A stretch of DNA of 64,000 nt from Pseudobutyrivibrio ruminis (GTDB lineage: Bacteria > Bacillota > Clostridia > Lachnospirales > Lachnospiraceae): assembly GCA_015057315.1 (NCBI GenBank), contig SVER01000014.1, positions 10,388 to 74,387 of the forward strand, written 5' to 3'. Each line of letters starts with the position of its first letter. Position 1 is the stretch's first letter. Both the position numbers and the translations under genes were made by a program. Shown one piece after another: positions 54,980 through 63,627 of the stretch. The notes under the pieces were generated by a model. The model ran no database searches. It saw only the letters and a list, made by a program, of their open reading frames with translations, and had not been told where the DNA came from.

Positions 54980-56650
54980 ATGAAACGAGGTGAAGTTGTA
55001 CAAGGTAAAGTTATAAAAGTAAACTTCCCTAACAAAGGTATAATAGAAACAGCCGAGGGAGACAAGCTCCGTGTTAAGGGCGTGTTGCCAGGCCAGACTG
55101 TTTCAGTAAGAGTTAAAAAGAGTTCAAAAGAAAAGGCGCAGGGCAATCTACTTTCGGTAGATGCTCCATCGCCTATAGAAATGGATACCCCAGCATGCGT
55201 GCATTATGGTAAATGCGGTGGCTGTACATATCAGTCGCTTCCTTACGAGGAGCAGCTAAAGCTGAAAGAGGGCATGATTCATGATTTAATGGCTCCTGTC
55301 ATCAGCGAAGACGTATGGAATGCCACATACGAAGGCATCAAAGCCAGCCCAAAGCAGTTTGGTTATCGTAATAAAATGGAGTTCTCATTCGGAGATGAGG
55401 TAAAGGACGGCCCACTTACACTTGGTATGCACAAGAAGGGCAGTTTCTATGATGTTGTTACAGTAGATGGTTGTCAAATTATCGATGCAGATATGCGTCG
55501 TGTCCTTACAATCACTTTAGATTACTTCGCAAATGCTAAGCAGCCATATTATCGCAAGAATACACATGAAGGATACTTGCGTCATCTGCTTGTTCGTAAG
55601 GCAACAAAGACAGGTGAAATCTTAGTAGATTTGGTTACCAGCACACAGATTTCATCAATCTACGAGCTTGCTCTTTTAGAGGGATGGAAGCAGGCACTTT
55701 TGAAATGTCAGGATTGGGAAGGAAAGCTTACAGGTATTCTTCATACTAAAAATGATAGAGAGGCTGATGTGGTAGCAGACGAAGGCACAGAGGTGCTTTA
55801 CGGACAAAGCTGGTTTAAGGAAGAGCTTCTTGGTCTTTCATTTACTATCAGCCCATTCTCATTCTTCCAGACTAATTCTTTAGGAGCAGAAGTACTTTAC
55901 AGCACAGCCCGTGATTTTATTGCATCAGGAGCTGACGGAGCCGAAGTATACGATTTGTATTCAGGCACTGGCACAATCGCCCAGGTTATCGCCCCTGCAG
56001 CTAAGCACGTAACAGGTGTAGAAATCATCGCCGAAGCAGTTGAAGCAGCCAAGGACAATGCCAAGCTCAACGGACTTGATAACTGCGATTTCATCGCAGG
56101 CGATGTTCTCAAAGTGCTGGACGACATCACAGAAAAGCCAGACTACATTATCCTAGACCCACCTAGGGACGGCATCCATCCAAAGGCCTTGGACAAAATT
56201 ATCGATTACGGCGTAGATTCCCTAATCTACATATCTTGCAAGCCTACTAGCCTTGCCCGCGACCTAGAGGTCTTCCTAGCCCGCGGCTACAAGGTCACAC
56301 GCCTTGCCTGCGTTGACATGTTTCCGGGTACTTACCATGTGGAGACGTGCGTACTTTTGTCCAAACTTTCTAGTGCAGAAAACCACGTAGAATTCAGTAT
56401 TTCAGGTGATGAATTGGACGTTACAACAGCAGAAAGTAAAGCGACATATCAACAGATAAAAGATTGGGTACAAAAAGAGTGTGGCTTAACTGTTTCATCA
56501 CTGAATATTGCCCAAGTAAAGCGTGCTAATGGAATAATTGAGCGCGAATGCTATAATGAACCAAAATCTGAAGACAGTAGACAGCCAGGCTGCCCAGAAG
56601 AAAAGTGGAAGGCCATTGAAGAGGCTCTGAAGTATTTTCAGATGATATAA
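54980..56650 (+). CDS. rlmD: 23S rRNA m5U methyltransferase RlmD with C-terminal extension
   Basis: C...GKCGGC, YRNKMEF, FFQTN, DLYSGTGTI, LDPPRDG, YISC, DMFPGTYHVE, followed by about 95 extra residues. Confidence 0.93.
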   Translation: MKRGEVVQGKVIKVNFPNKGIIETAEGDKLRVKGVLPGQTVSVRVKKSSKEKAQGNLLSVDAPSPIEMDTPACVHYGKCGGCTYQSLPYEEQLKLKEGMIHDLMAPVISEDVWNATYEGIKASPKQFGYRNKMEFSFGDEVKDGPLTLGMHKKGSFYDVVTVDGCQIIDADMRRVLTITLDYFANAKQPYYRKNTHEGYLRHLLVRKATKTGEILVDLVTSTQISSIYELALLEGWKQALLKCQDWEGKLTGILHTKNDREADVVADEGTEVLYGQSWFKEELLGLSFTISPFSFFQTNSLGAEVLYSTARDFIASGADGAEVYDLYSGTGTIAQVIAPAAKHVTGVEIIAEAVEAAKDNAKLNGLDNCDFIAGDVLKVLDDITEKPDYIILDPPRDGIHPKALDKIIDYGVDSLIYISCKPTSLARDLEVFLARGYKVTRLACVDMFPGTYHVETCVLLSKLSSAENHVEFSISGDELDVTTAESKATYQQIKDWVQKECGLTVSSLNIAQVKRANGIIERECYNEPKSEDSRQPGCPEEKWKAIEEALKYFQMI

Positions 56651-56665
56651 GAAATAAAAAAATGT

Positions 56666-56702
56666 AGTGACAGGATAATTGCCTTCTGTCACTTATTTTT
56701 TT
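56666..56702 (+). terminator. Intrinsic terminator after rlmD
   Basis: agtgacagga...ttctgtcact followed by tatttttt. Confidence 0.7.
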
Positions 56703-56818
56703 GATTAATTTGTTATACAAATGTAAATTTTATATTTCAAGAAAATCCGAATGATTATTTTTAAAATCATAGTATAATGAGGCTAAACAGTACGTCTATT
56801 TCTAGGAGAAAAAGTGGA

Positions 56819-57367
56819 ATGTTACATATAATATTTAAAGAGAAACTAGTTAAAAATAAAATGGATAGTAGCAATCTTTTTAGAATTCTACTAGAATACC
56901 TTCTCCCTATTGTAATAATATTGGTGCTTTTTCATTACGTACTATTGGCTGGTACTATTTCAAGTGGAAGTATGGAACCAACCTTAATGACTGGTTCAGT
57001 GATGTTTGGAAATAGACTAGCATATGTTGTAAAAGATGTTGAAAGAGGCGATATTATTTTTTTTAAGCACGAAAAGGAGATAGCAGGAAAGCGAGTAATA
57101 GGTATTCCAGGAGATAAAATTGAGTTTTTTGATGGCGATGTGTATTTGAATGATAAAAAACTTGAGGAAGATTATCTTGCTTTTGATACAGATACAAATT
57201 GTAGTGAAACATTTGTTGTACCTAATGGAACCGTGTTTGTAATGGGCGATAATAGAGAAAACTCTAGTGATTCGAGAAGTTGGGAAAATCCATATGTGGA
57301 CACAGATACCATAGTTGCCAAATTGATATTTGTTACACCTCCATGGTTTGCCAAATTGTATTACTAA
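56819..57367 (+). CDS. lepB: Signal peptidase I (S26A)
   Basis: TM then SGSMEPTL (Ser), RGDIIFF, KRVIGIPGD (Lys), MGDNRENSSDSR. Start 56777 or 56819. Confidence 0.9.
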   Translation: MLHIIFKEKLVKNKMDSSNLFRILLEYLLPIVIILVLFHYVLLAGTISSGSMEPTLMTGSVMFGNRLAYVVKDVERGDIIFFKHEKEIAGKRVIGIPGDKIEFFDGDVYLNDKKLEEDYLAFDTDTNCSETFVVPNGTVFVMGDNRENSSDSRSWENPYVDTDTIVAKLIFVTPPWFAKLYY

Positions 57368-57734
57368 ATGAAAAGTAATACAATTTTATAAAATAATATA
57401 GATAGAAGTCCCTGTTGGAGTAATCTTGCAGGGGCTTATTTTTTTCTTGGAAATTGATATAGAAAGCTACCTCATAGTTATAAGTTTTAAATGATACCAA
57501 ATTTTGAAATAAGATGGGCTAATTGTATGCATAAATAATTGGTTATAAAAAACTTGCTTGAAATGATGCGTACATGCTAATATAACTACATTTTTGAACA
57601 CACTAGATTCATACAAAAATGATACTATTAATGAAAGTTAAGAAAAATGATATCGTATATGACTACAAATAACTATCAAATGTAAATTGCATTGGTATAG
57701 ATAATTTCCAAAGGGATATTTGGAGGTTATATCT

Positions 57735-58607
57735 ATGATAATTTTAAATAAAAAATTTATATTTCTATTATCGATACTCGTACTAATAGTCACCATTATA
57801 TTAAATGTCAATATTTTTTTGTGACAGTTATTATTGGAGTCAAGGACAAAGTGTACTGTGGCAATAGAACGAGGTGATACAGTTTTATACATTGGTGACG
57901 ATATTGCTGTTGAACATGGAAATATAACTGAAAAAGGAAGAGAAGTAGTTCTTGGCTCAGGTTTTTCTGAGCAAGTTATAATTAATGCACAAAATTCATA
58001 TAATTCGTCACATTCAAACAGCACAAACGATAATACCGTAGAAAATGCTAGTTCAAGTGAAAAGAATACTGCCGACCAACAGCAAGAAACAAGCAATAAT
58101 AAAACTGAAATAAAAGATAAAAGTGCAAGACCAAATTATACTGAACAAGAAATTGAAGCGGCTTGGACAGAAATGGAAAAGATAGAATCAACCTGCACTG
58201 AAACAAGATATGCAACCTACTCAAATACTCTCACTGGAGAAACAAAGTCAGAAGAGTTATCATTGGCTGATTATAAGTATGTTGAAACTGAACGAAAAGA
58301 AGCTACTTGCACAGAAGCAGGTTCAATAACATATACTTGCGAGATATGTGGTGATACTTATTCAGAAGAAATCCCTGCTCTAAGTCACGATTACGAGTGG
58401 GTCACAACTAAAGAAGCTTCATTCTTTACTCTAGGTGAAGAACAATACGTCTGCAATAATTGTGGAGATGTATGAAAAACAAGAGAGAATTCTACTACTT
58501 GCCCAATTCCACTTATGGGAATAATAATAGGTATATGTGTTGTTTTCATCGGGTCAGTCAGTGGAATAGTTGTTTTGAAGAAAAAGAAAACAATTAAAGA
58601 GATTTAG
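57735..58607 (+). pseudogene. CxxC-repeat surface protein paralog 1, interrupted by two in-frame TGA codons
   Basis: RBS ggagg and ATG 57735 with a signal peptide; TGA at 57822 and 58473; same frame continues to a TM anchor and TAG at 58605, about 90% identical to the paralog 2 3' end. Confidence 0.8.
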
Positions 58608-58619
58608 GAGGTTATATCA

Positions 58620-59498
58620 ATGAAAATTTTAAATAAATTAATGATGACAATTGTGCTTGGACTTATAATATTAGCTACTGGGGTTTCATGTTATTGCGAG
58701 CTTAGACTAAGTGAAAAAAGAGCCGCAGCAATTAATGCTGAGGTAGCAGTAGAAGATGGGGGAACATGCACGGTTAATACTAGCGACGGAAGAACAATAA
58801 CAGTTGTAAAAAATGGCGTTATTCAGGATTATGCATTTTTATATGAGTGCGGAGTAACTGATGCTGAAATTGCACAATGGCAATCTGCTTCTAAATCAAC
58901 TGTTTCCAATGAGTCAACAGAGGAACCAAATAATACAAAATCTAAAACCGATGGGCAGGAAAGTAAGCAAGCAAATACGAAGGAATCTAATCAAAAGGCA
59001 GAAGAGAAAAAAAACCAAGAACCCTCATATACTGCTGAGGAAATTGCAGCGGCTTGGGTGGAAACAAATAGAGTAGAATCGACATGCACTGAAGCAGGCC
59101 ACGTAGACTATTCAAACTCTCTTACTGGTGAAACAAAAAGTGAAGAGTTGCCTTTAGCAGAACACAAGTATGCTGAAACAGAACGAAAAGAAGCTACTTG
59201 CACAGAAGTGGGTTCAATAACATATACATGTGAAGTATGTGGTGATACATATACAGAGGAAGTCCCTGCTCTAGGTCACGAATACGAGTGGGTCACAACT
59301 AAAGAAGCTTCATTCTTTACTCTAGGTGAAGAACAATACGTCTGCAAAAATTGTGGAGATGTATCAAAAACAAGGGAGATTTCTGCTACTTGCCCAATTC
59401 CACTTATGGGAATAATAATAGGTATATGTGTTGTTCTAATCGGAGCAGTCAGTGGAATAGTTGTTTTGAAGAAAAAGAGAACAATTAAAGAGATTTAG
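58620..59498 (+). CDS. CxxC-repeat surface protein paralog 2
   Basis: Signal peptide, variable head, S/T/E/K-rich linker, TCTEAG/TCEVCGD/CKNCGD repeats, C-terminal TM + KKKR. Confidence 0.85.
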   Translation: MKILNKLMMTIVLGLIILATGVSCYCELRLSEKRAAAINAEVAVEDGGTCTVNTSDGRTITVVKNGVIQDYAFLYECGVTDAEIAQWQSASKSTVSNESTEEPNNTKSKTDGQESKQANTKESNQKAEEKKNQEPSYTAEEIAAAWVETNRVESTCTEAGHVDYSNSLTGETKSEELPLAEHKYAETERKEATCTEVGSITYTCEVCGDTYTEEVPALGHEYEWVTTKEASFFTLGEEQYVCKNCGDVSKTREISATCPIPLMGIIIGICVVLIGAVSGIVVLKKKRTIKEI

Positions 59499-59511
59499 GA
59501 GGTTCATTTAT

Positions 59512-60396
59512 ATGAGAATTAGCAAACACATGTTTTTCCGATTAGGAATTTTATCTATATTAATCTGTTCAATTGTATTTAGCACAAAGTTCTTTTGTTT
59601 GGATAAACTCTCTATACGGGCTGCAACAAAAGCGGGATTACAGCGAGCGGATCACTCAGCGAGCATTACAGATGAAAATGGTAATGAAATCTTTTTCCTT
59701 AAAAATGGAGTCATAGTAAATTATGATATAGTTTATCAAGCAGGAGTGACTGACGCTGAAATCGCAGAGTGGTCGGCAGCTAATAGTTCAAGTACAACCA
59801 CGCAATCAAAAACAGAGGACTCAACCAAAGAGGAAACATCTAGCACAGTGGAAAATAAAGATTCAAATAAAAATGATTCTACCACCAAGAATAACGATAG
59901 CGAAAATAAGACGAGCAAAACTGAAAATGCAAAAACACCCACTTATACCGATGATGAGATAGCAGCTGCGTGGTCAGAGTCAGAAAGAGCAGAATCGACA
60001 TGTATCGAAGCAGGACATGTTAGCTATACAAACAGCCTTACTGGTGAAACTAAATCTGAGGAATTACCACTAGCTGAACATAAGTATTCTGAAATAGAGC
60101 GAAAAGACGCAACTTGCAGTGAAGCAGGTTCAATAACATATACTTGTGAAGTCTGTGGTGATACATATACAGAAGAAATCCCTGCTCTTAATCACGAGTA
60201 TGAGTGGGCTACAACTAAAGAAGCTTCACTATTTACCCCAGGCGAAGAACAGTATGTGTGCAAAAATTGTGGTGATATATCAGAAACCAAAGAAATTACT
60301 TTTACTAGTCCTGTTTTTGTCGCACTATTAATTGCAAGTGTGGCTGTTATGATTATAGGTATTGGATTCTTCTTTATTAAAATGAAAAATGATTAG
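59512..60396 (+). CDS. CxxC-repeat surface protein paralog 3
   Basis: Same architecture; 59758-60146 identical to 61432-61820. Confidence 0.85.
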   Translation: MRISKHMFFRLGILSILICSIVFSTKFFCLDKLSIRAATKAGLQRADHSASITDENGNEIFFLKNGVIVNYDIVYQAGVTDAEIAEWSAANSSSTTTQSKTEDSTKEETSSTVENKDSNKNDSTTKNNDSENKTSKTENAKTPTYTDDEIAAAWSESERAESTCIEAGHVSYTNSLTGETKSEELPLAEHKYSEIERKDATCSEAGSITYTCEVCGDTYTEEIPALNHEYEWATTKEASLFTPGEEQYVCKNCGDISETKEITFTSPVFVALLIASVAVMIIGIGFFFIKMKND

Positions 60397-60478
60397 TTTT
60401 ATTTTTTACATAAAAGTGATGTTAAGCTATAATACTTTTGTAAAGAAAAATATATTATAATTAAGGAGAGCAAGAATT

Positions 60479-60748
60479 ATGATGTACCCTTATATGACAT
60501 TTTCTGATGGTACTGAGGTTGTCCATTCACAAGTGATTAAAGAAAATGATACAGATAAAATTATAGTTCATTTTGAAAGAGCAACGGAAAATGGATTTGA
60601 TTCGGCCAGATGTGAATTACCATCATATAATTGGTTGCTTAAAGAGGGATATTCTCAAGAAGAAATTGATTTCTTTGAAAAATTCTTAAGAAATAATGCT
60701 CATTTATTATATAAATATGCAGCCTTAGGAGGAATTAAAATTGCCTAG
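60479..60748 (+). CDS. Small conserved-looking protein, partner of the downstream DUF4160 gene
   Basis: RBS aaggag; 89 aa; stop overlaps the next start. Confidence 0.7.
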   Translation: MMYPYMTFSDGTEVVHSQVIKENDTDKIIVHFERATENGFDSARCELPSYNWLLKEGYSQEEIDFFEKFLRNNAHLLYKYAALGGIKIA

Positions 60749-61019
60749 TATTTTTACTGTAAGTGGTTATAAGGTTTATTTTTGGTCCAATGAAAATAAT
60801 GAACCTATACATGTTCATGTGTCTAAAGGGCAACCATCACCTCACGGTACAAAAATATGGTTAACTAGCAAAGGTGGATGTATACTTGCCAATAATGGTG
60901 GTAATATTCCGTCTAAAGAATTGAATGAGTTAATGGAGTTTATTTCTGCTCAGTTTTTTATTATTTGTGATGCATGGAAAAAGCACTTTTTGACCGAAGA
61001 AATAAAATTCTATTGTTAA
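60741..61019 (+). CDS. DUF4160-family (HicA-like fold) protein
   Basis: MPSIFTVSGYKVYFWSNE..EPIHVHVSKG....TKIWL. Confidence 0.75.
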   Translation: MPSIFTVSGYKVYFWSNENNEPIHVHVSKGQPSPHGTKIWLTSKGGCILANNGGNIPSKELNELMEFISAQFFIICDAWKKHFLTEEIKFYC

Positions 61020-61030
61020 ACCTACTACTA

Positions 61031-61075
61031 AGGCTCACAAAGGCTGAATTTTCAGATTTGTGAGCTTTTTTGTTT
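61031..61075 (+). terminator. Intrinsic terminator after the DUF4160 pair
   Basis: aggctcacaa...ttgtgagctt followed by tttt. Confidence 0.6.
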
Positions 61076-61161
61076 AACAGATGTTCTGATGAAGGCGAAA
61101 TATGTAAAAGTGATGTTATGCTATAATATACATATACAGATATATTTAGGAGGTAATTATT

Positions 61162-62076
61162 TTGATAAAACATACACTTTTTAAATACAATGTAAGCCTT
61201 GTTTCTCTTTTTGTTATATTGATAATTTATGTATCATGTTTTCATACAATTAATTGTGAGGATTATACACCTTATATAGATAAACTAACAGTACGTGCAA
61301 TGACAAAAACTAGTTTGATGGAAGGTACGGGCGATTGTTATATTGGTACTCCAGATGGAAATGTTATCTTTATAAAGGGTGGAAAAATTGTCAATTATGA
61401 TATTATCTACCAAACGGGGATAACTGATGCCGAAATCGCAGAGTGGTCGGCAGCTAATAGTTCAAGTACAACCACGCAATCAAAAACAGAGGACTCAACC
61501 AAAGAGGAAACATCTAGCACAGTGGAAAATAAAGATTCAAATAAAAATGATTCTACCACCAAGAATAACGATAGCGAAAATAAGACGAGCAAAACTGAAA
61601 ATGCAAAAACACCCACTTATACCGATGATGAGATAGCAGCTGCGTGGTCAGAGTCAGAAAGAGCAGAATCGACATGTATCGAAGCAGGACATGTTAGCTA
61701 TACAAACAGCCTTACTGGTGAAACTAAATCTGAGGAATTACCACTAGCTGAACATAAGTATTCTGAAATAGAGCGAAAAGACGCAACTTGCAGTGAAGCA
61801 GGTTCAATAACATATACTTGCGAGATATGTGGTGATACTTATTCAGAGGAAGTCCCTGCTCTAGGTCACGAATATGAGTGGATTACAACCAAAGAAGCTA
61901 CATTGTTTAGATCTGGTGAAGAACAGTATGTTTGTAAGAACTGTGGTGATGTTACAGAAACAAGAGTACTTTCATCTCGATTTCCAACGGGTTTTGTATT
62001 AGTTGTTGCAAGTATTCTATTTGTTATAGGGATAGGATTTATGACATATAGGAAAAATAAAAGTAGCATATCTTAA
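61162..62076 (+). CDS. CxxC-repeat surface protein paralog 4
   Basis: TTG start after aggagg; same architecture; own TM tail. Confidence 0.85.
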   Translation: MIKHTLFKYNVSLVSLFVILIIYVSCFHTINCEDYTPYIDKLTVRAMTKTSLMEGTGDCYIGTPDGNVIFIKGGKIVNYDIIYQTGITDAEIAEWSAANSSSTTTQSKTEDSTKEETSSTVENKDSNKNDSTTKNNDSENKTSKTENAKTPTYTDDEIAAAWSESERAESTCIEAGHVSYTNSLTGETKSEELPLAEHKYSEIERKDATCSEAGSITYTCEICGDTYSEEVPALGHEYEWITTKEATLFRSGEEQYVCKNCGDVTETRVLSSRFPTGFVLVVASILFVIGIGFMTYRKNKSSIS

Positions 62077-62096
62077 AAGATAAGGTGGCTTTGATA

Positions 62097-62732
62097 ATGA
62101 ACAAAAAGGATTTTAAAGCTGCGCTATGCAATGGATGTAGAACGAAATGGTGTTTAAAACTTTTATTTATTTTATTATGCTGCATTCTTATCTACGTAAA
62201 TAACAAATTTGATCATACTTTTGAAGAAGATAGCGTGAGCATGAGGTTAGAATATACTTCTGATTTCGAAAGGCTGAAAATTGGAAATGCTGGTAATATT
62301 GTCCTCTTTGAAAGAGATGAAATGGAAAATGTCACTGTTAGGCCAATTGCTATATATACTGGTTCGGAGGCGGAACGATTGATACTGACATATGGCGGGA
62401 GAAAAACTCATCCTGAAGAAGGAACAGAATTTGTAGTATTGGAATACAGTGCTACTGTTGACCCAAGAGAGCATTATATCGATTGCAAATTGCTGGGCAC
62501 TGACTTAAACAATATATCTTATGACAGTATTGTGTACCGTTCAAAATGCTATGATATGTATGAGAACATAAAAGTTGAGGACGGTGTGTTTAACAAAATA
62601 TATCTTTATTATGAGCTACCAATTGGTGTTGATGAATATATTTTGGAGTTCGGATATCACGTGGCAGAGCAAGAGCTAGGCATGGAAAATAAATTTACAG
62701 CGCATTACTACATTAATGTAAAAGATTTATAA
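62097..62732 (+). CDS. Membrane-anchored hypothetical protein, possibly Ig-like (DUF4352-like)
   Basis: N-terminal Cys-rich TM; EGTEFVVLEYS..YLYYELP.G..EYILEFG. Confidence 0.6.
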   Translation: MNKKDFKAALCNGCRTKWCLKLLFILLCCILIYVNNKFDHTFEEDSVSMRLEYTSDFERLKIGNAGNIVLFERDEMENVTVRPIAIYTGSEAERLILTYGGRKTHPEEGTEFVVLEYSATVDPREHYIDCKLLGTDLNNISYDSIVYRSKCYDMYENIKVEDGVFNKIYLYYELPIGVDEYILEFGYHVAEQELGMENKFTAHYYINVKDL

Positions 62733-62760: not shown

Positions 62761-63627
62761 CTAGTTCTCGCTATTCTTTTCTTTACGCTCTTTCAGACGT
62801 TTAACCTTACGGGTGTTTTTCTTCGACTTAAGCATATCTTTATATTTTTTTGATCTGTGCATCAGCTTTTTAAAAACGTTATACTCTTCTGGTGGTACAG
62901 TAGAAGGAACAATTCCACTGGTTGCACAGAATGAGTTAAAGAAAATCTTAGCAACATCCTCGTCAGGGTCTTCCTCTGTAACTTGAGGCACAGGGATATT
63001 TTCAAGAATGATATCTTTCAAAGTAGTGTCGGTAGCAGTTTCGGAATCTTTTTTATGAGCATTTCTAAGATCGTCTAGGATTGGCGTGAGTTCAGTATTG
63101 ATTCTGTTTATAAAGTAGTTTCTTTCTTCTACATGGTTTGCCTCTAGCAATGCAGTCCAAATATCATCCCTGTCGGGCTTTAAGTTTCTTACAATCTTCT
63201 CGTGATAGGCATTCATTACAGCTTGAATAGCCTGAAAATTCTGTCCAGCAATTCCATCAATATAGATTTCAATATCAGCTAATACATCCTTAAACCCGGG
63301 ATGAGAAATAAGCTCGCACAGAAGTCTGTTATTCAATTCCTTATTCTTTAAAATTTCTAGAGTCCTGTCATCTAAATCTAATACAGAAACATCTTTTGTG
63401 TCGTTAGTTCTAGAGCTACTTCTATCAAATAAATAATCTAGAGAAACATCAAAATAATCAGCAAGTTGAACTACTGCATAGTGAGAGATACCCTTTGTTT
63501 CGTCGGTTTCATATTCGCTTATAGTGGATTTTGATATTCCAGTGGCAGCAGCCAATTCATCTTGCGATAATCCTTTTTCAACTCGTAAATCTTTTAATCG
63601 TTCCTGTAGTGTTACATGAGTTTTCAA
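62761..63627 (-). CDS. XRE-family HTH regulator of the integrative element
   Basis: LQERLKDLRVEKGLSQDELAAATGISKSTISEYE..LADYFDVSLDYL. Confidence 0.9.
   Translation of the reverse strand: MKTHVTLQERLKDLRVEKGLSQDELAAATGISKSTISEYETDETKGISHYAVVQLADYFDVSLDYLFDRSSSRTNDTKDVSVLDLDDRTLEILKNKELNNRLLCELISHPGFKDVLADIEIYIDGIAGQNFQAIQAVMNAYHEKIVRNLKPDRDDIWTALLEANHVEERNYFINRINTELTPILDDLRNAHKKDSETATDTTLKDIILENIPVPQVTEEDPDEDVAKIFFNSFCATSGIVPSTVPPEEYNVFKKLMHRSKKYKDMLKSKKNTRKVKRLKERKEKNSEN

Follow-up and report, generated by a model that had tools for sequence, protein, structure and literature searches.

The 64,000-nucleotide stretch of the Pseudobutyrivibrio ruminis (Lachnospiraceae) genome examined here (GenBank assembly GCA_015057315.1, contig SVER01000014.1, positions 10,388 to 74,387, hereafter the window) contains a gene for a type I signal peptidase (SPase I) of the S26 family, followed by an array of 4 paralogous genes for putative surface proteins with a Cys/His-rich stalk, and by a gene for a membrane-tethered immunoglobulin-like (Ig-like) protein, here called orf215. 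The peptidase is linked non-randomly to the stalk protein family. Genes for the peptidase, the orf215 protein and the stalk proteins were found together at 5 independent, diverged loci, the peptidases linked to these partners clustered in a clade of their own, and the peptidase was repeatedly found fused to the orf215 domain. This linkage of the trio is real and was found to be undescribed as far as our literature search reached.

In a first-pass annotation, made from the sequence alone, the locus had been described as a lepB gene followed by 4 paralogs, and all of these open reading frames (ORFs) were recovered where it had placed them. Its list of components was incomplete in that it missed the gene for the orf215 protein, which belongs to the system.

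Recurrence of the trio and relationships of the peptidase

Besides the window, which is part of contig C58, the trio was identified on a second contig of the same genome (C56), in a Pseudobutyrivibrio metagenome-assembled genome (MAG; L005), and at the loci L093/L094 and L123/L124. The loci elsewhere were identified by hidden Markov model scans of fetched loci, with all 3 components located within 6 kb. In total, the genome contained 7 genes of the stalk family, 2 with the orf215 domain and 5 that clearly encode S26 peptidases. Of these, 6 stalk genes and the 2 orf215 genes were located in the 2 modules with an S26 gene, on C58 and C56. The C56 module consisted of 2 stalk genes, 2 unrelated genes, a gene for an orf215-type protein with a lipoprotein signal and, 4 bases further on, the S26 gene; orf215 adjoins an S26 gene at both of its copies in this genome. 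The proteins of the 2 modules were only 30% to 44% identical, and the C56 module is therefore considered to be an old copy.

At the loci L005 and L123/L124, the S26 and orf215 domains were fused into a single protein (S26::orf215), encoded by a gene that was followed by a stalk gene. Since the search that led to L123 started from the fusion protein and not from a stalk protein, this locus represents an independent test of the linkage. The L093/L094 locus contained genes for a 339-amino acid stalk subfamily and a 397-amino acid orf215 protein, along with a convergent S26 gene. The island of the window was also found in another assembly (L086), where it was located after the gene rumA and contained 3 paralogs. 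Furthermore, S26 and stalk genes without orf215 were identified in Acetatifactor (L063) and Roseburia (L008). It was noted that the Roseburia S26 gene (L008:9185-9744) is apparently frameshifted near the GDNRE box and that the adjoining stalk ORF has no signal peptide, so that the locus resembles a decaying module.

The peptidase of the window exceeded the cut-offs of PF10502 (125 bits; cut-off 22.9) and TIGR02227 (131 bits; cut-off 47), and contained the Ser box SGSMEPT, the Lys box GKRVIG and the GDNRE..DSR box. Judged by its sequence, it is a catalytically intact bacterial S26A type I signal peptidase of the LepB/SipS type. An assignment to the SipW or endoplasmic reticulum (ER) type, S26B, failed, with NF046067 giving 26 bits (cut-off 190) and TIGR02228 giving 33.5 bits (cut-off 51.85).

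In a maximum likelihood tree of 36 S26 domains, 10 of the 11 domains linked to a stalk or orf215 gene were placed in one clade with support values of 87/82 to 94/95, and the clustering was matched by none of 500 label shuffles. The linked loci had been found via their neighbors, and it is the clustering of the peptidases, not their count, that represents the independent observation. The clade is also marked by a short deletion and by the signature residues F, ETNC..T, GDNRE, and NPY, which were present in 11 to 13 of the 13 clade members, compared with 0 to 4 of the 23 other domains. A tandem pair of S26 genes on contig C51 of the same genome fell outside the clade, and none of 19 S26 loci of other genera contained a stalk or orf215 gene within up to 8 kb on each side. 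A link between the S26 peptidase and this protein family, as put forward in the first-pass annotation, is supported by the trio at 5 loci, the separate clade and the fusions, although the linkage is not obligatory, as described below.

Two further ideas were examined and abandoned. A covariation of the Cys residue in ETNC with the Cys that follows the hydrophobic region (h-region) of the signal in the stalk proteins fits L063 but fails for L093 and L123. A scan of the components with PADLOC and PHROGs yielded nothing except the XRE regulator and one uncharacterized PHROG family for the peptidase, and an origin from a defense system or a phage was dropped. We also noted a module-clade S26 peptidase within a 682-amino acid protein encoded on contig C64 of the same genome (C64:48982-51030, corresponding to L089:4983-7031, minus strand), in which a signal peptide is followed by an Ig-like ectodomain (Glucodextran_B/Big_13), a transmembrane (TM) helix, a basic cytoplasmic linker, a second TM helix, and the S26 domain. 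A Cellulosilyticum MAG (L149) encodes a 625-amino acid counterpart of this protein, with an S26 domain that is 80% identical to the window enzyme.

The orf215 protein had no match in Pfam or NCBIfam. An AlphaFold2 model based on 101 homologs consisted of an N-terminal TM helix and an Ig-like β-sandwich, with a predicted local distance difference test (pLDDT) score of 85 and a predicted template modeling (pTM) score of 0.71. The fold matches were weak (E-values of 0.02 to 0.08, template modeling scores of 0.24 to 0.46), the best bacterial ones being YcdA (4r4g) and the Clostridioides difficile protein CD630_09570 (5bxg). Like these DUF4352-like Ig-fold lipoproteins, which are membrane-tethered extracellular β-sandwiches of Firmicutes, the orf215 protein is predicted to carry its sandwich outside the membrane, but the similarity in fold is weak and the protein has no Pfam family. 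Its identification as a TasA/camelysin protein (Peptidase_M73) failed, as there was no match to the family and the fold matches listed were Ig-like, with no TasA among them.

An exhaustive profile search recovered about 240 clusters of the orf215 family at 50% identity. The members were mostly lipoproteins or TM-anchored proteins of 400 to 550 amino acids with the domain at the C-terminus. Fusions to S26 (PF10502) were found in 13 of the 101 clusters scanned, and no other Pfam domain was recurrent. Because the catalytic domain of S26 peptidases faces outward, a C-terminal fusion sets the Ig-like domain beside the active site. A 494-amino acid lipoprotein with the orf215 domain was also observed at L160-L162, on a contig resembling an integrative and conjugative element (ICE), by genes for a tyrosine integrase, DUF3268, a dUTPase, an NAD-dependent DNA ligase, and a PARP-domain protein.

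Stalk proteins as mosaics with a putatively metal-associated repeat

The layout previously proposed for all 4 paralogs, with a signal, head, linker, stalk, TM helix, and basic tail, was supported by alignment, with the qualification that paralog 1 is a pseudogene with 2 in-frame TGA codons. An intact counterpart of this paralog is present in L086. A recoding of TGA as selenocysteine or Trp was rejected, since the second codon is located at a Ser/Thr position and all other genes read normally in translation table 11. The first codon is located just past the signal-anchor helix, at the site of a Cys that is conserved in nearly all relatives.

The alignments also bore out the 2 motifs quoted for these proteins: a head motif, K(N/G)G.I..Y....G(V/I)TDAEIA.W, that is common to paralogs 2 to 4, and a stalk motif, ATC.E.GSITYTCE.CGDTY.EE.PAL.H(E/D)YEW...EEQYVC(K/N)NCGD, that is present in all 4 paralogs and is followed by the TM helix and the basic tail. 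The linkers are rich in Ser, Thr, Asn, Lys, and Glu, the cytoplasmic tails consist of about 10 residues, and the h-region of the signal is followed by 10 to 20 residues that usually include a Cys. As had been stated earlier, anchoring by sortase is not indicated: a motif search for [LSIV]P.[TSA]G (LPXTG-like) was negative for all of the paralogs, and no sortase was identified among the locus proteins scanned against Pfam. The sequence TCPIP, together with the TM helix and the basic tail, was considered as a sortase- or exosortase-type signal and rejected, as a single Pro is conserved across the TM-tail types.

The segments of the stalk proteins have evolved as a mosaic. The stalks were 66% to 90% identical in every pair, whereas the heads were 15% to 64% identical, except for one pair with identical heads, and the TM tails fell into 3 or 4 discrete types that did not track the heads. 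In paralogs 3 and 4, the linker was 100% and the stalk 87% identical, but the signal region and the TM tail differed. Outside the trio loci, the stalk genes on 4 conjugative elements (L001, L084, L091, L095) were located directly upstream of a gene for an unannotated protein of about 1,230 to 1,360 amino acids, as was the stalk gene at one site in the P. ruminis genome itself (C22:8999-13720, L088). This neighbor was 85% identical among 3 conjugative elements whose stalk proteins had unrelated heads, which indicates that heads are exchanged quickly on a stable backbone. Taken together, these comparisons identify the head variation, at the level of sequence, as evolutionary cassette exchange. 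It was also noted that genes for a rhomboid protease and a thermonuclease were located 6 to 9 kb upstream in L001, L084, and L091, that is, at 3 of the 4 element loci.

The AlphaFold2 model of paralog 2 had a mean pLDDT score of 80, with values above 93 for the stalk and below 40 for the linker. Nine consecutive β-strands were predicted for the stalk (residues 133 to 258), and the low pTM score of 0.38 is as expected for an elongated shape. The residues C156, H182, C194, C204, C207, H220, and C242 were invariant in the stalk alignment, and C245 was nearly so. A search with the whole model against the folds in the PDB gave no match with an E-value below 0.001, and a search of a viral library recovered only metagenomic proteins with SLH and LRR domains that contained the same repeat. 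The Pfam matches on the stalk, to zinc ribbons and rubredoxin knuckles, were all below the thresholds.

A relationship to a described domain was recovered by a profile of 47 homologs. In the IgA protease of Thomasclavelia ramosa (PDB entry 9qa6), it matched residues 852 to 977 and 1094 to 1131. The E-value was 2e-4 overall, and 0.005 for the best-scoring domain. Although weak, this match is specific, and it aligns the Cys/His and GEW.V...AT..G motifs. In this enzyme, the matched domains, CTD2 and CTD4, have been described as "metal-associated periscope domains", which are single β-sheets bridged by predicted Cys/His zinc sites, form a fully extended rod according to small-angle X-ray scattering, and had no structural homolog in the PDBeFold search of the authors (Tran, Frenette & Holyoak 2025, PNAS; PMC12415215). 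The first-pass annotation had called the system undescribed, but its stalk matches a published domain. The accompanying idea of a metal-stabilized Cys/His stalk agrees with the published analysis of the matching domains and is, as far as sequence comparison goes, reasonable but not new.

The stalks and the T. ramosa domains contain the same kind of Cys/His repeat (ATC.xxG...C..C...H...W.V...AT..G....C.VC...IP). The T. ramosa domains are built of single β-sheets placed end to end, an arrangement that the stalks would share, and just as they had no match in PDBeFold, the whole model of paralog 2 had none among the PDB folds. They have been proposed to keep a functional domain at a distance from the cell. 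For the stalks as for these domains, metal binding is predicted. The T. ramosa enzyme differs in that it is a sortase-anchored protein of about 1,200 residues with an SPXTG motif at residues 1196 to 1200 (PMC12402451), whereas the window proteins, at about 300 amino acids, combine a tiny variable head with a TM anchor at the C-terminus and are linked to a peptidase. Among Clostridia, the repeat is widespread, with at least 554 genome matches, and it was also found in large proteins with SLH, LRR, and Big_2 domains.

The mobile island and its other genes

The suggestion that the locus is on or beside a mobile element was substantiated. Beyond the window, the contig contains genes for Mob_Pre (26.5 bits against a cut-off of 25.5), a CHC2 primase, VapE, KilA-N, and a large serine recombinase with Resolvase, Recombinase, and Zn_ribbon_recom domains. 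In a genome of the same genus (G201), rumA is present with 89% identity over residues 1 to 556 and the island is absent; the DNA homology to this genome stops at position 56660 of the window, 10 bases past the rumA stop codon. The G+C content is 34% to 37% in the island and 41% to 45% in the flank. The right end of the island was sought by comparison with G201 and was not found, as no synteny was detected beyond rumA and the contig stops 1 kb past the recombinase gene. With an integrase, mobilization genes and absence from a relative, the island is probably an integrative mobilizable element (IME). Streptococcal IMEs with serine integrases at rumA have been described (PMC5704250), and the window shares with these the combination of a serine recombinase and mobilization genes as well as the association with rumA. 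The streptococcal elements interrupt rumA internally, whereas rumA is intact in the window and the island starts about 10 bp past its stop codon.

The features of the locus are listed in Table 1. The genes pcrA and rumA are located upstream of the peptidase locus. Past its methyltransferase domain, RumA continues for about 95 amino acids at the C-terminus (the Pfam match stops at residue 462 of 556), and both the same-genus genome and L086 conserve this extension. The gene pair between paralogs 3 and 4, consisting of an 89-codon ORF and a DUF4160 gene, is probably outside the system. The 2 genes overlap by 8 bases and resemble a toxin-antitoxin pair, and a second copy of the pair is present on contig C56 (29593-30103). 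A promoter-like repeat of 44 nucleotides was observed ahead of the pair (60411-60454) and again ahead of paralog 4 (61105-61148).

Table 1. Features of the peptidase locus and its borders (positions in the window)
Feature	Position	Strand	Comment
rumA/rlmD, 23S rRNA methyltransferase	54980..56650	+	PF05958; left flank, island starts directly past stop codon
Terminator-like hairpin	56666..56693	+	3' of rumA, left edge of island
S26A LepB-type signal peptidase	56777..57367	+	Likely start 56819 behind AGGAG; one N-terminal TM helix; Ser/Lys dyad intact
Paralog 1, stalk-protein pseudogene	57735..58606	+	In-frame TGA at 57822-57824 and 58473-58475
Paralog 2	58620..59498	+	AlphaFold2 model, alignments
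Paralog 2 regions (residues)			Signal-anchor 1-38; head 39-92; disordered linker 93-132; Cys/His β-ribbon stalk 133-258; TM and basic tail 259-292
Paralog 3	59512..60396	+	N-terminus and head 79% identical to ICE-borne homolog P0005
Inserted gene pair, 89-amino acid ORF and DUF4160	60479..61019	+	PF13711 at 58 bits; missing from syntenic L086
Paralog 4	61162..62076	+	Alignments
orf215, membrane-tethered Ig-like protein	62085..62732	+	Likely start 62097; N-terminal TM anchor and extracellular Ig-like β-sandwich (AlphaFold2)
XRE-family regulator of island	62761..63627	-	PF01381; same position kept in L086

Proposed role of the module and what it would mean

Our preferred reading, to which we give about even chances, is that the specialized peptidase, its Ig-like partner and the array of periscope proteins form a 3-component extracytoplasmic module at the cargo end of the IME. 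We infer that the stalk proteins would be inserted by the Sec pathway with both ends in the membrane, after which the module peptidase, positioned or made specific by the Ig-like partner, would remove the atypical N-terminal signal-anchor. The head would then be held off the cell surface on the rigid Cys/His stalk, which probably binds zinc, and recombination, both among paralogs and from one mobile element to another, would swap heads, stalks and TM tails. The heads most likely mediate a cell-surface recognition that is useful to the element, such as adhesion, mating contact or exclusion, because the stalk family is also present on conjugative elements beside the conserved surface protein of about 1,300 amino acids.

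Several observations weigh against a peptidase dedicated to these proteins. The closest outside homologs, which are those on the conjugative elements L001, L084, L091, and L095 (47% to 55% identity to paralog 2), have no S26 gene within 8 to 10 kb, and the same is true for the stalk genes on a plasmid-like contig (L007) and on contig C22 of the P. ruminis genome itself. The plasmid-like homolog has an ordinary short signal peptide, and its genome contains only S26 genes of the housekeeping kind. There is likewise no linked S26 gene for P0005, with which paralog 3 shares 79% of the N-terminus and head; the host genome of P0005 encodes, elsewhere, a clade S26 domain fused behind an Ig-like surface protein and 80% identical to the window enzyme, along with an orf215-type lipoprotein. 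In the broad repeat family, an S26 gene was located within 10 kb at 4 of 80 genome loci. Conversely, S26::orf215 fusions without a stalk gene were found on the short contigs L122 and L125. Apart from the 2 genes of this genome, no orf215 domain was recovered from the family, for which 400 further genomes were searched at one per genus, and the module is therefore considered rare; the 6-row profile used in this search kept columns from fused peptidases, and weak matches to the C-terminus of S26 proteins (E-values of 2e-8 to 9e-4) were not counted. Finally, the candidate cleavage stretch of the stalk proteins (RA/RAAA) was modeled as a confident helix (residues 30 to 46, pLDDT 86 to 91), and the candidate sites (V/I-R-A) obey the ordinary rule for positions -3 and -1, such that they could be cut by any SPase I. 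The first-pass annotation had named as contrary evidence homologs that occur without a linked signal peptidase and are processed by the housekeeping enzyme, and the first part of this, the existence of unlinked homologs, was observed.

It is unlikely, although the best placed of the alternatives, that the peptidase is a generic spare SPase I without special specificity, which would raise the secretion capacity for the cargo of the element in the manner of SipP. The SipP enzymes are plasmid-borne type I signal peptidases encoded by the plasmids pTA1015 and pTA1040 of B. subtilis (natto); they are regarded as functionally interchangeable with the chromosomal SipS and SipT and are not known to have fixed partner genes. 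The window enzyme is likewise an ordinary bacterial-type SPase I on a mobile element with standard catalytic motifs, the cleavage-type motifs of the stalk proteins (V/I-x-A) are ordinary, and near-identical N-termini serve in elements that have no S26 gene linked to them. Unlike SipP, however, it belongs to a separate clade and has fixed partners. Neither a clade with its own signature residues, nor repeated fusion to one particular Ig-like domain, nor recurrence with the same 2 partners at loci that are only 30% to 45% identical would be expected of a generic enzyme.

Somewhat less probable still is that the peptidase and the orf215 protein constitute a unit of their own, with the stalk proteins as mere passengers and with something else, or the orf215 protein itself, as substrate. 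This would account for the fusions on L122 and L125, but both contigs are short (3.3 and 6.8 kb). The stalk family and the orf215-domain lipoproteins of about 500 amino acids are both common cargo of conjugative elements, and in C64 and G401 an Ig-like surface protein of an unrelated kind is joined to a related S26 domain, as would also be in line with an independent unit. On the other hand, stalk genes are directly adjacent at the 5 trio loci and are present beside a clade S26 gene without orf215 in L063 and L008, and the concentration of 6 of the 7 stalk genes of this genome in the modules speaks against a passenger role.

We consider it improbable that the peptidase is a regulated sheddase, which would cut the anchor only after the head or the orf215 protein had bound a ligand and thereby convert a doubly anchored protein into a tip-exposed one. 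In B. subtilis, signal peptidase acts as the site-1 protease for RsiV after the binding of lysozyme. The candidate cleavage region is predicted as a helix packed with the head, which in the model would hide the site, and the Ig-like partner is tethered by the active site, but the proteins have no signaling domain, as their cytoplasmic tails consist of about 10 residues. Programmed antigen or phase variation, in which the cell would switch between paralogs and which had been part of the first-pass proposal, is very improbable: several paralogs do have divergent heads and the identical linker in paralogs 3 and 4 suggests gene conversion, but the paralogs are co-oriented and closely spaced with their own ribosome-binding sites, and therefore probably co-expressed, no recombinase gene is located within the array (no search covered invertible promoters or inverted repeats flanking promoters), and the variation was observed between elements and not within one locus.

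Returning to the 3-component module, the closest parallel in organization is the tapA-sipW-tasA operon of Bacillus subtilis, which encodes a dedicated signal peptidase for fiber proteins. In both cases, the peptidase gene is located among genes for exported proteins that are thought to be matured by the peptidase. SipW is of the ER/archaeal type (S26B), whereas the window enzyme is LepB-type, and the substrates of SipW polymerize (TasA/camelysin), whereas the candidate substrates in the window are membrane-anchored stalk proteins. The window locus also differs by its additional Ig-like partner, which can be fused to the peptidase.

A more far-reaching version, which we regard as speculative and rather unlikely, is that the clade S26 peptidase and the orf215 protein form a 2-subunit or fused specialized signal peptidase dedicated to periscope proteins encoded by mobile elements, whose hypervariable heads would set the partner specificity in conjugation as determinants of mating contact or exclusion, with IMEs collecting heads for several conjugative elements. 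If this were true, bacteria would have in these 2 proteins their own counterpart of an enzyme made up of a catalytic and a β-sandwich accessory subunit.

Clostridia of the gut and rumen display many proteins with Cys/His periscope stalks. The trio, with its repeated fusions, provides a testable handle on how type I signal peptidases, generally viewed as generalists, select their substrates, and would add an accessory subunit to this class of enzymes. In anaerobes, the compact unit of stalk and TM anchor could be used as a surface display scaffold. More broadly, a hypervariable surface family is here tied to conjugative and mobilizable elements, which suggests a role in recognition between element and cell.

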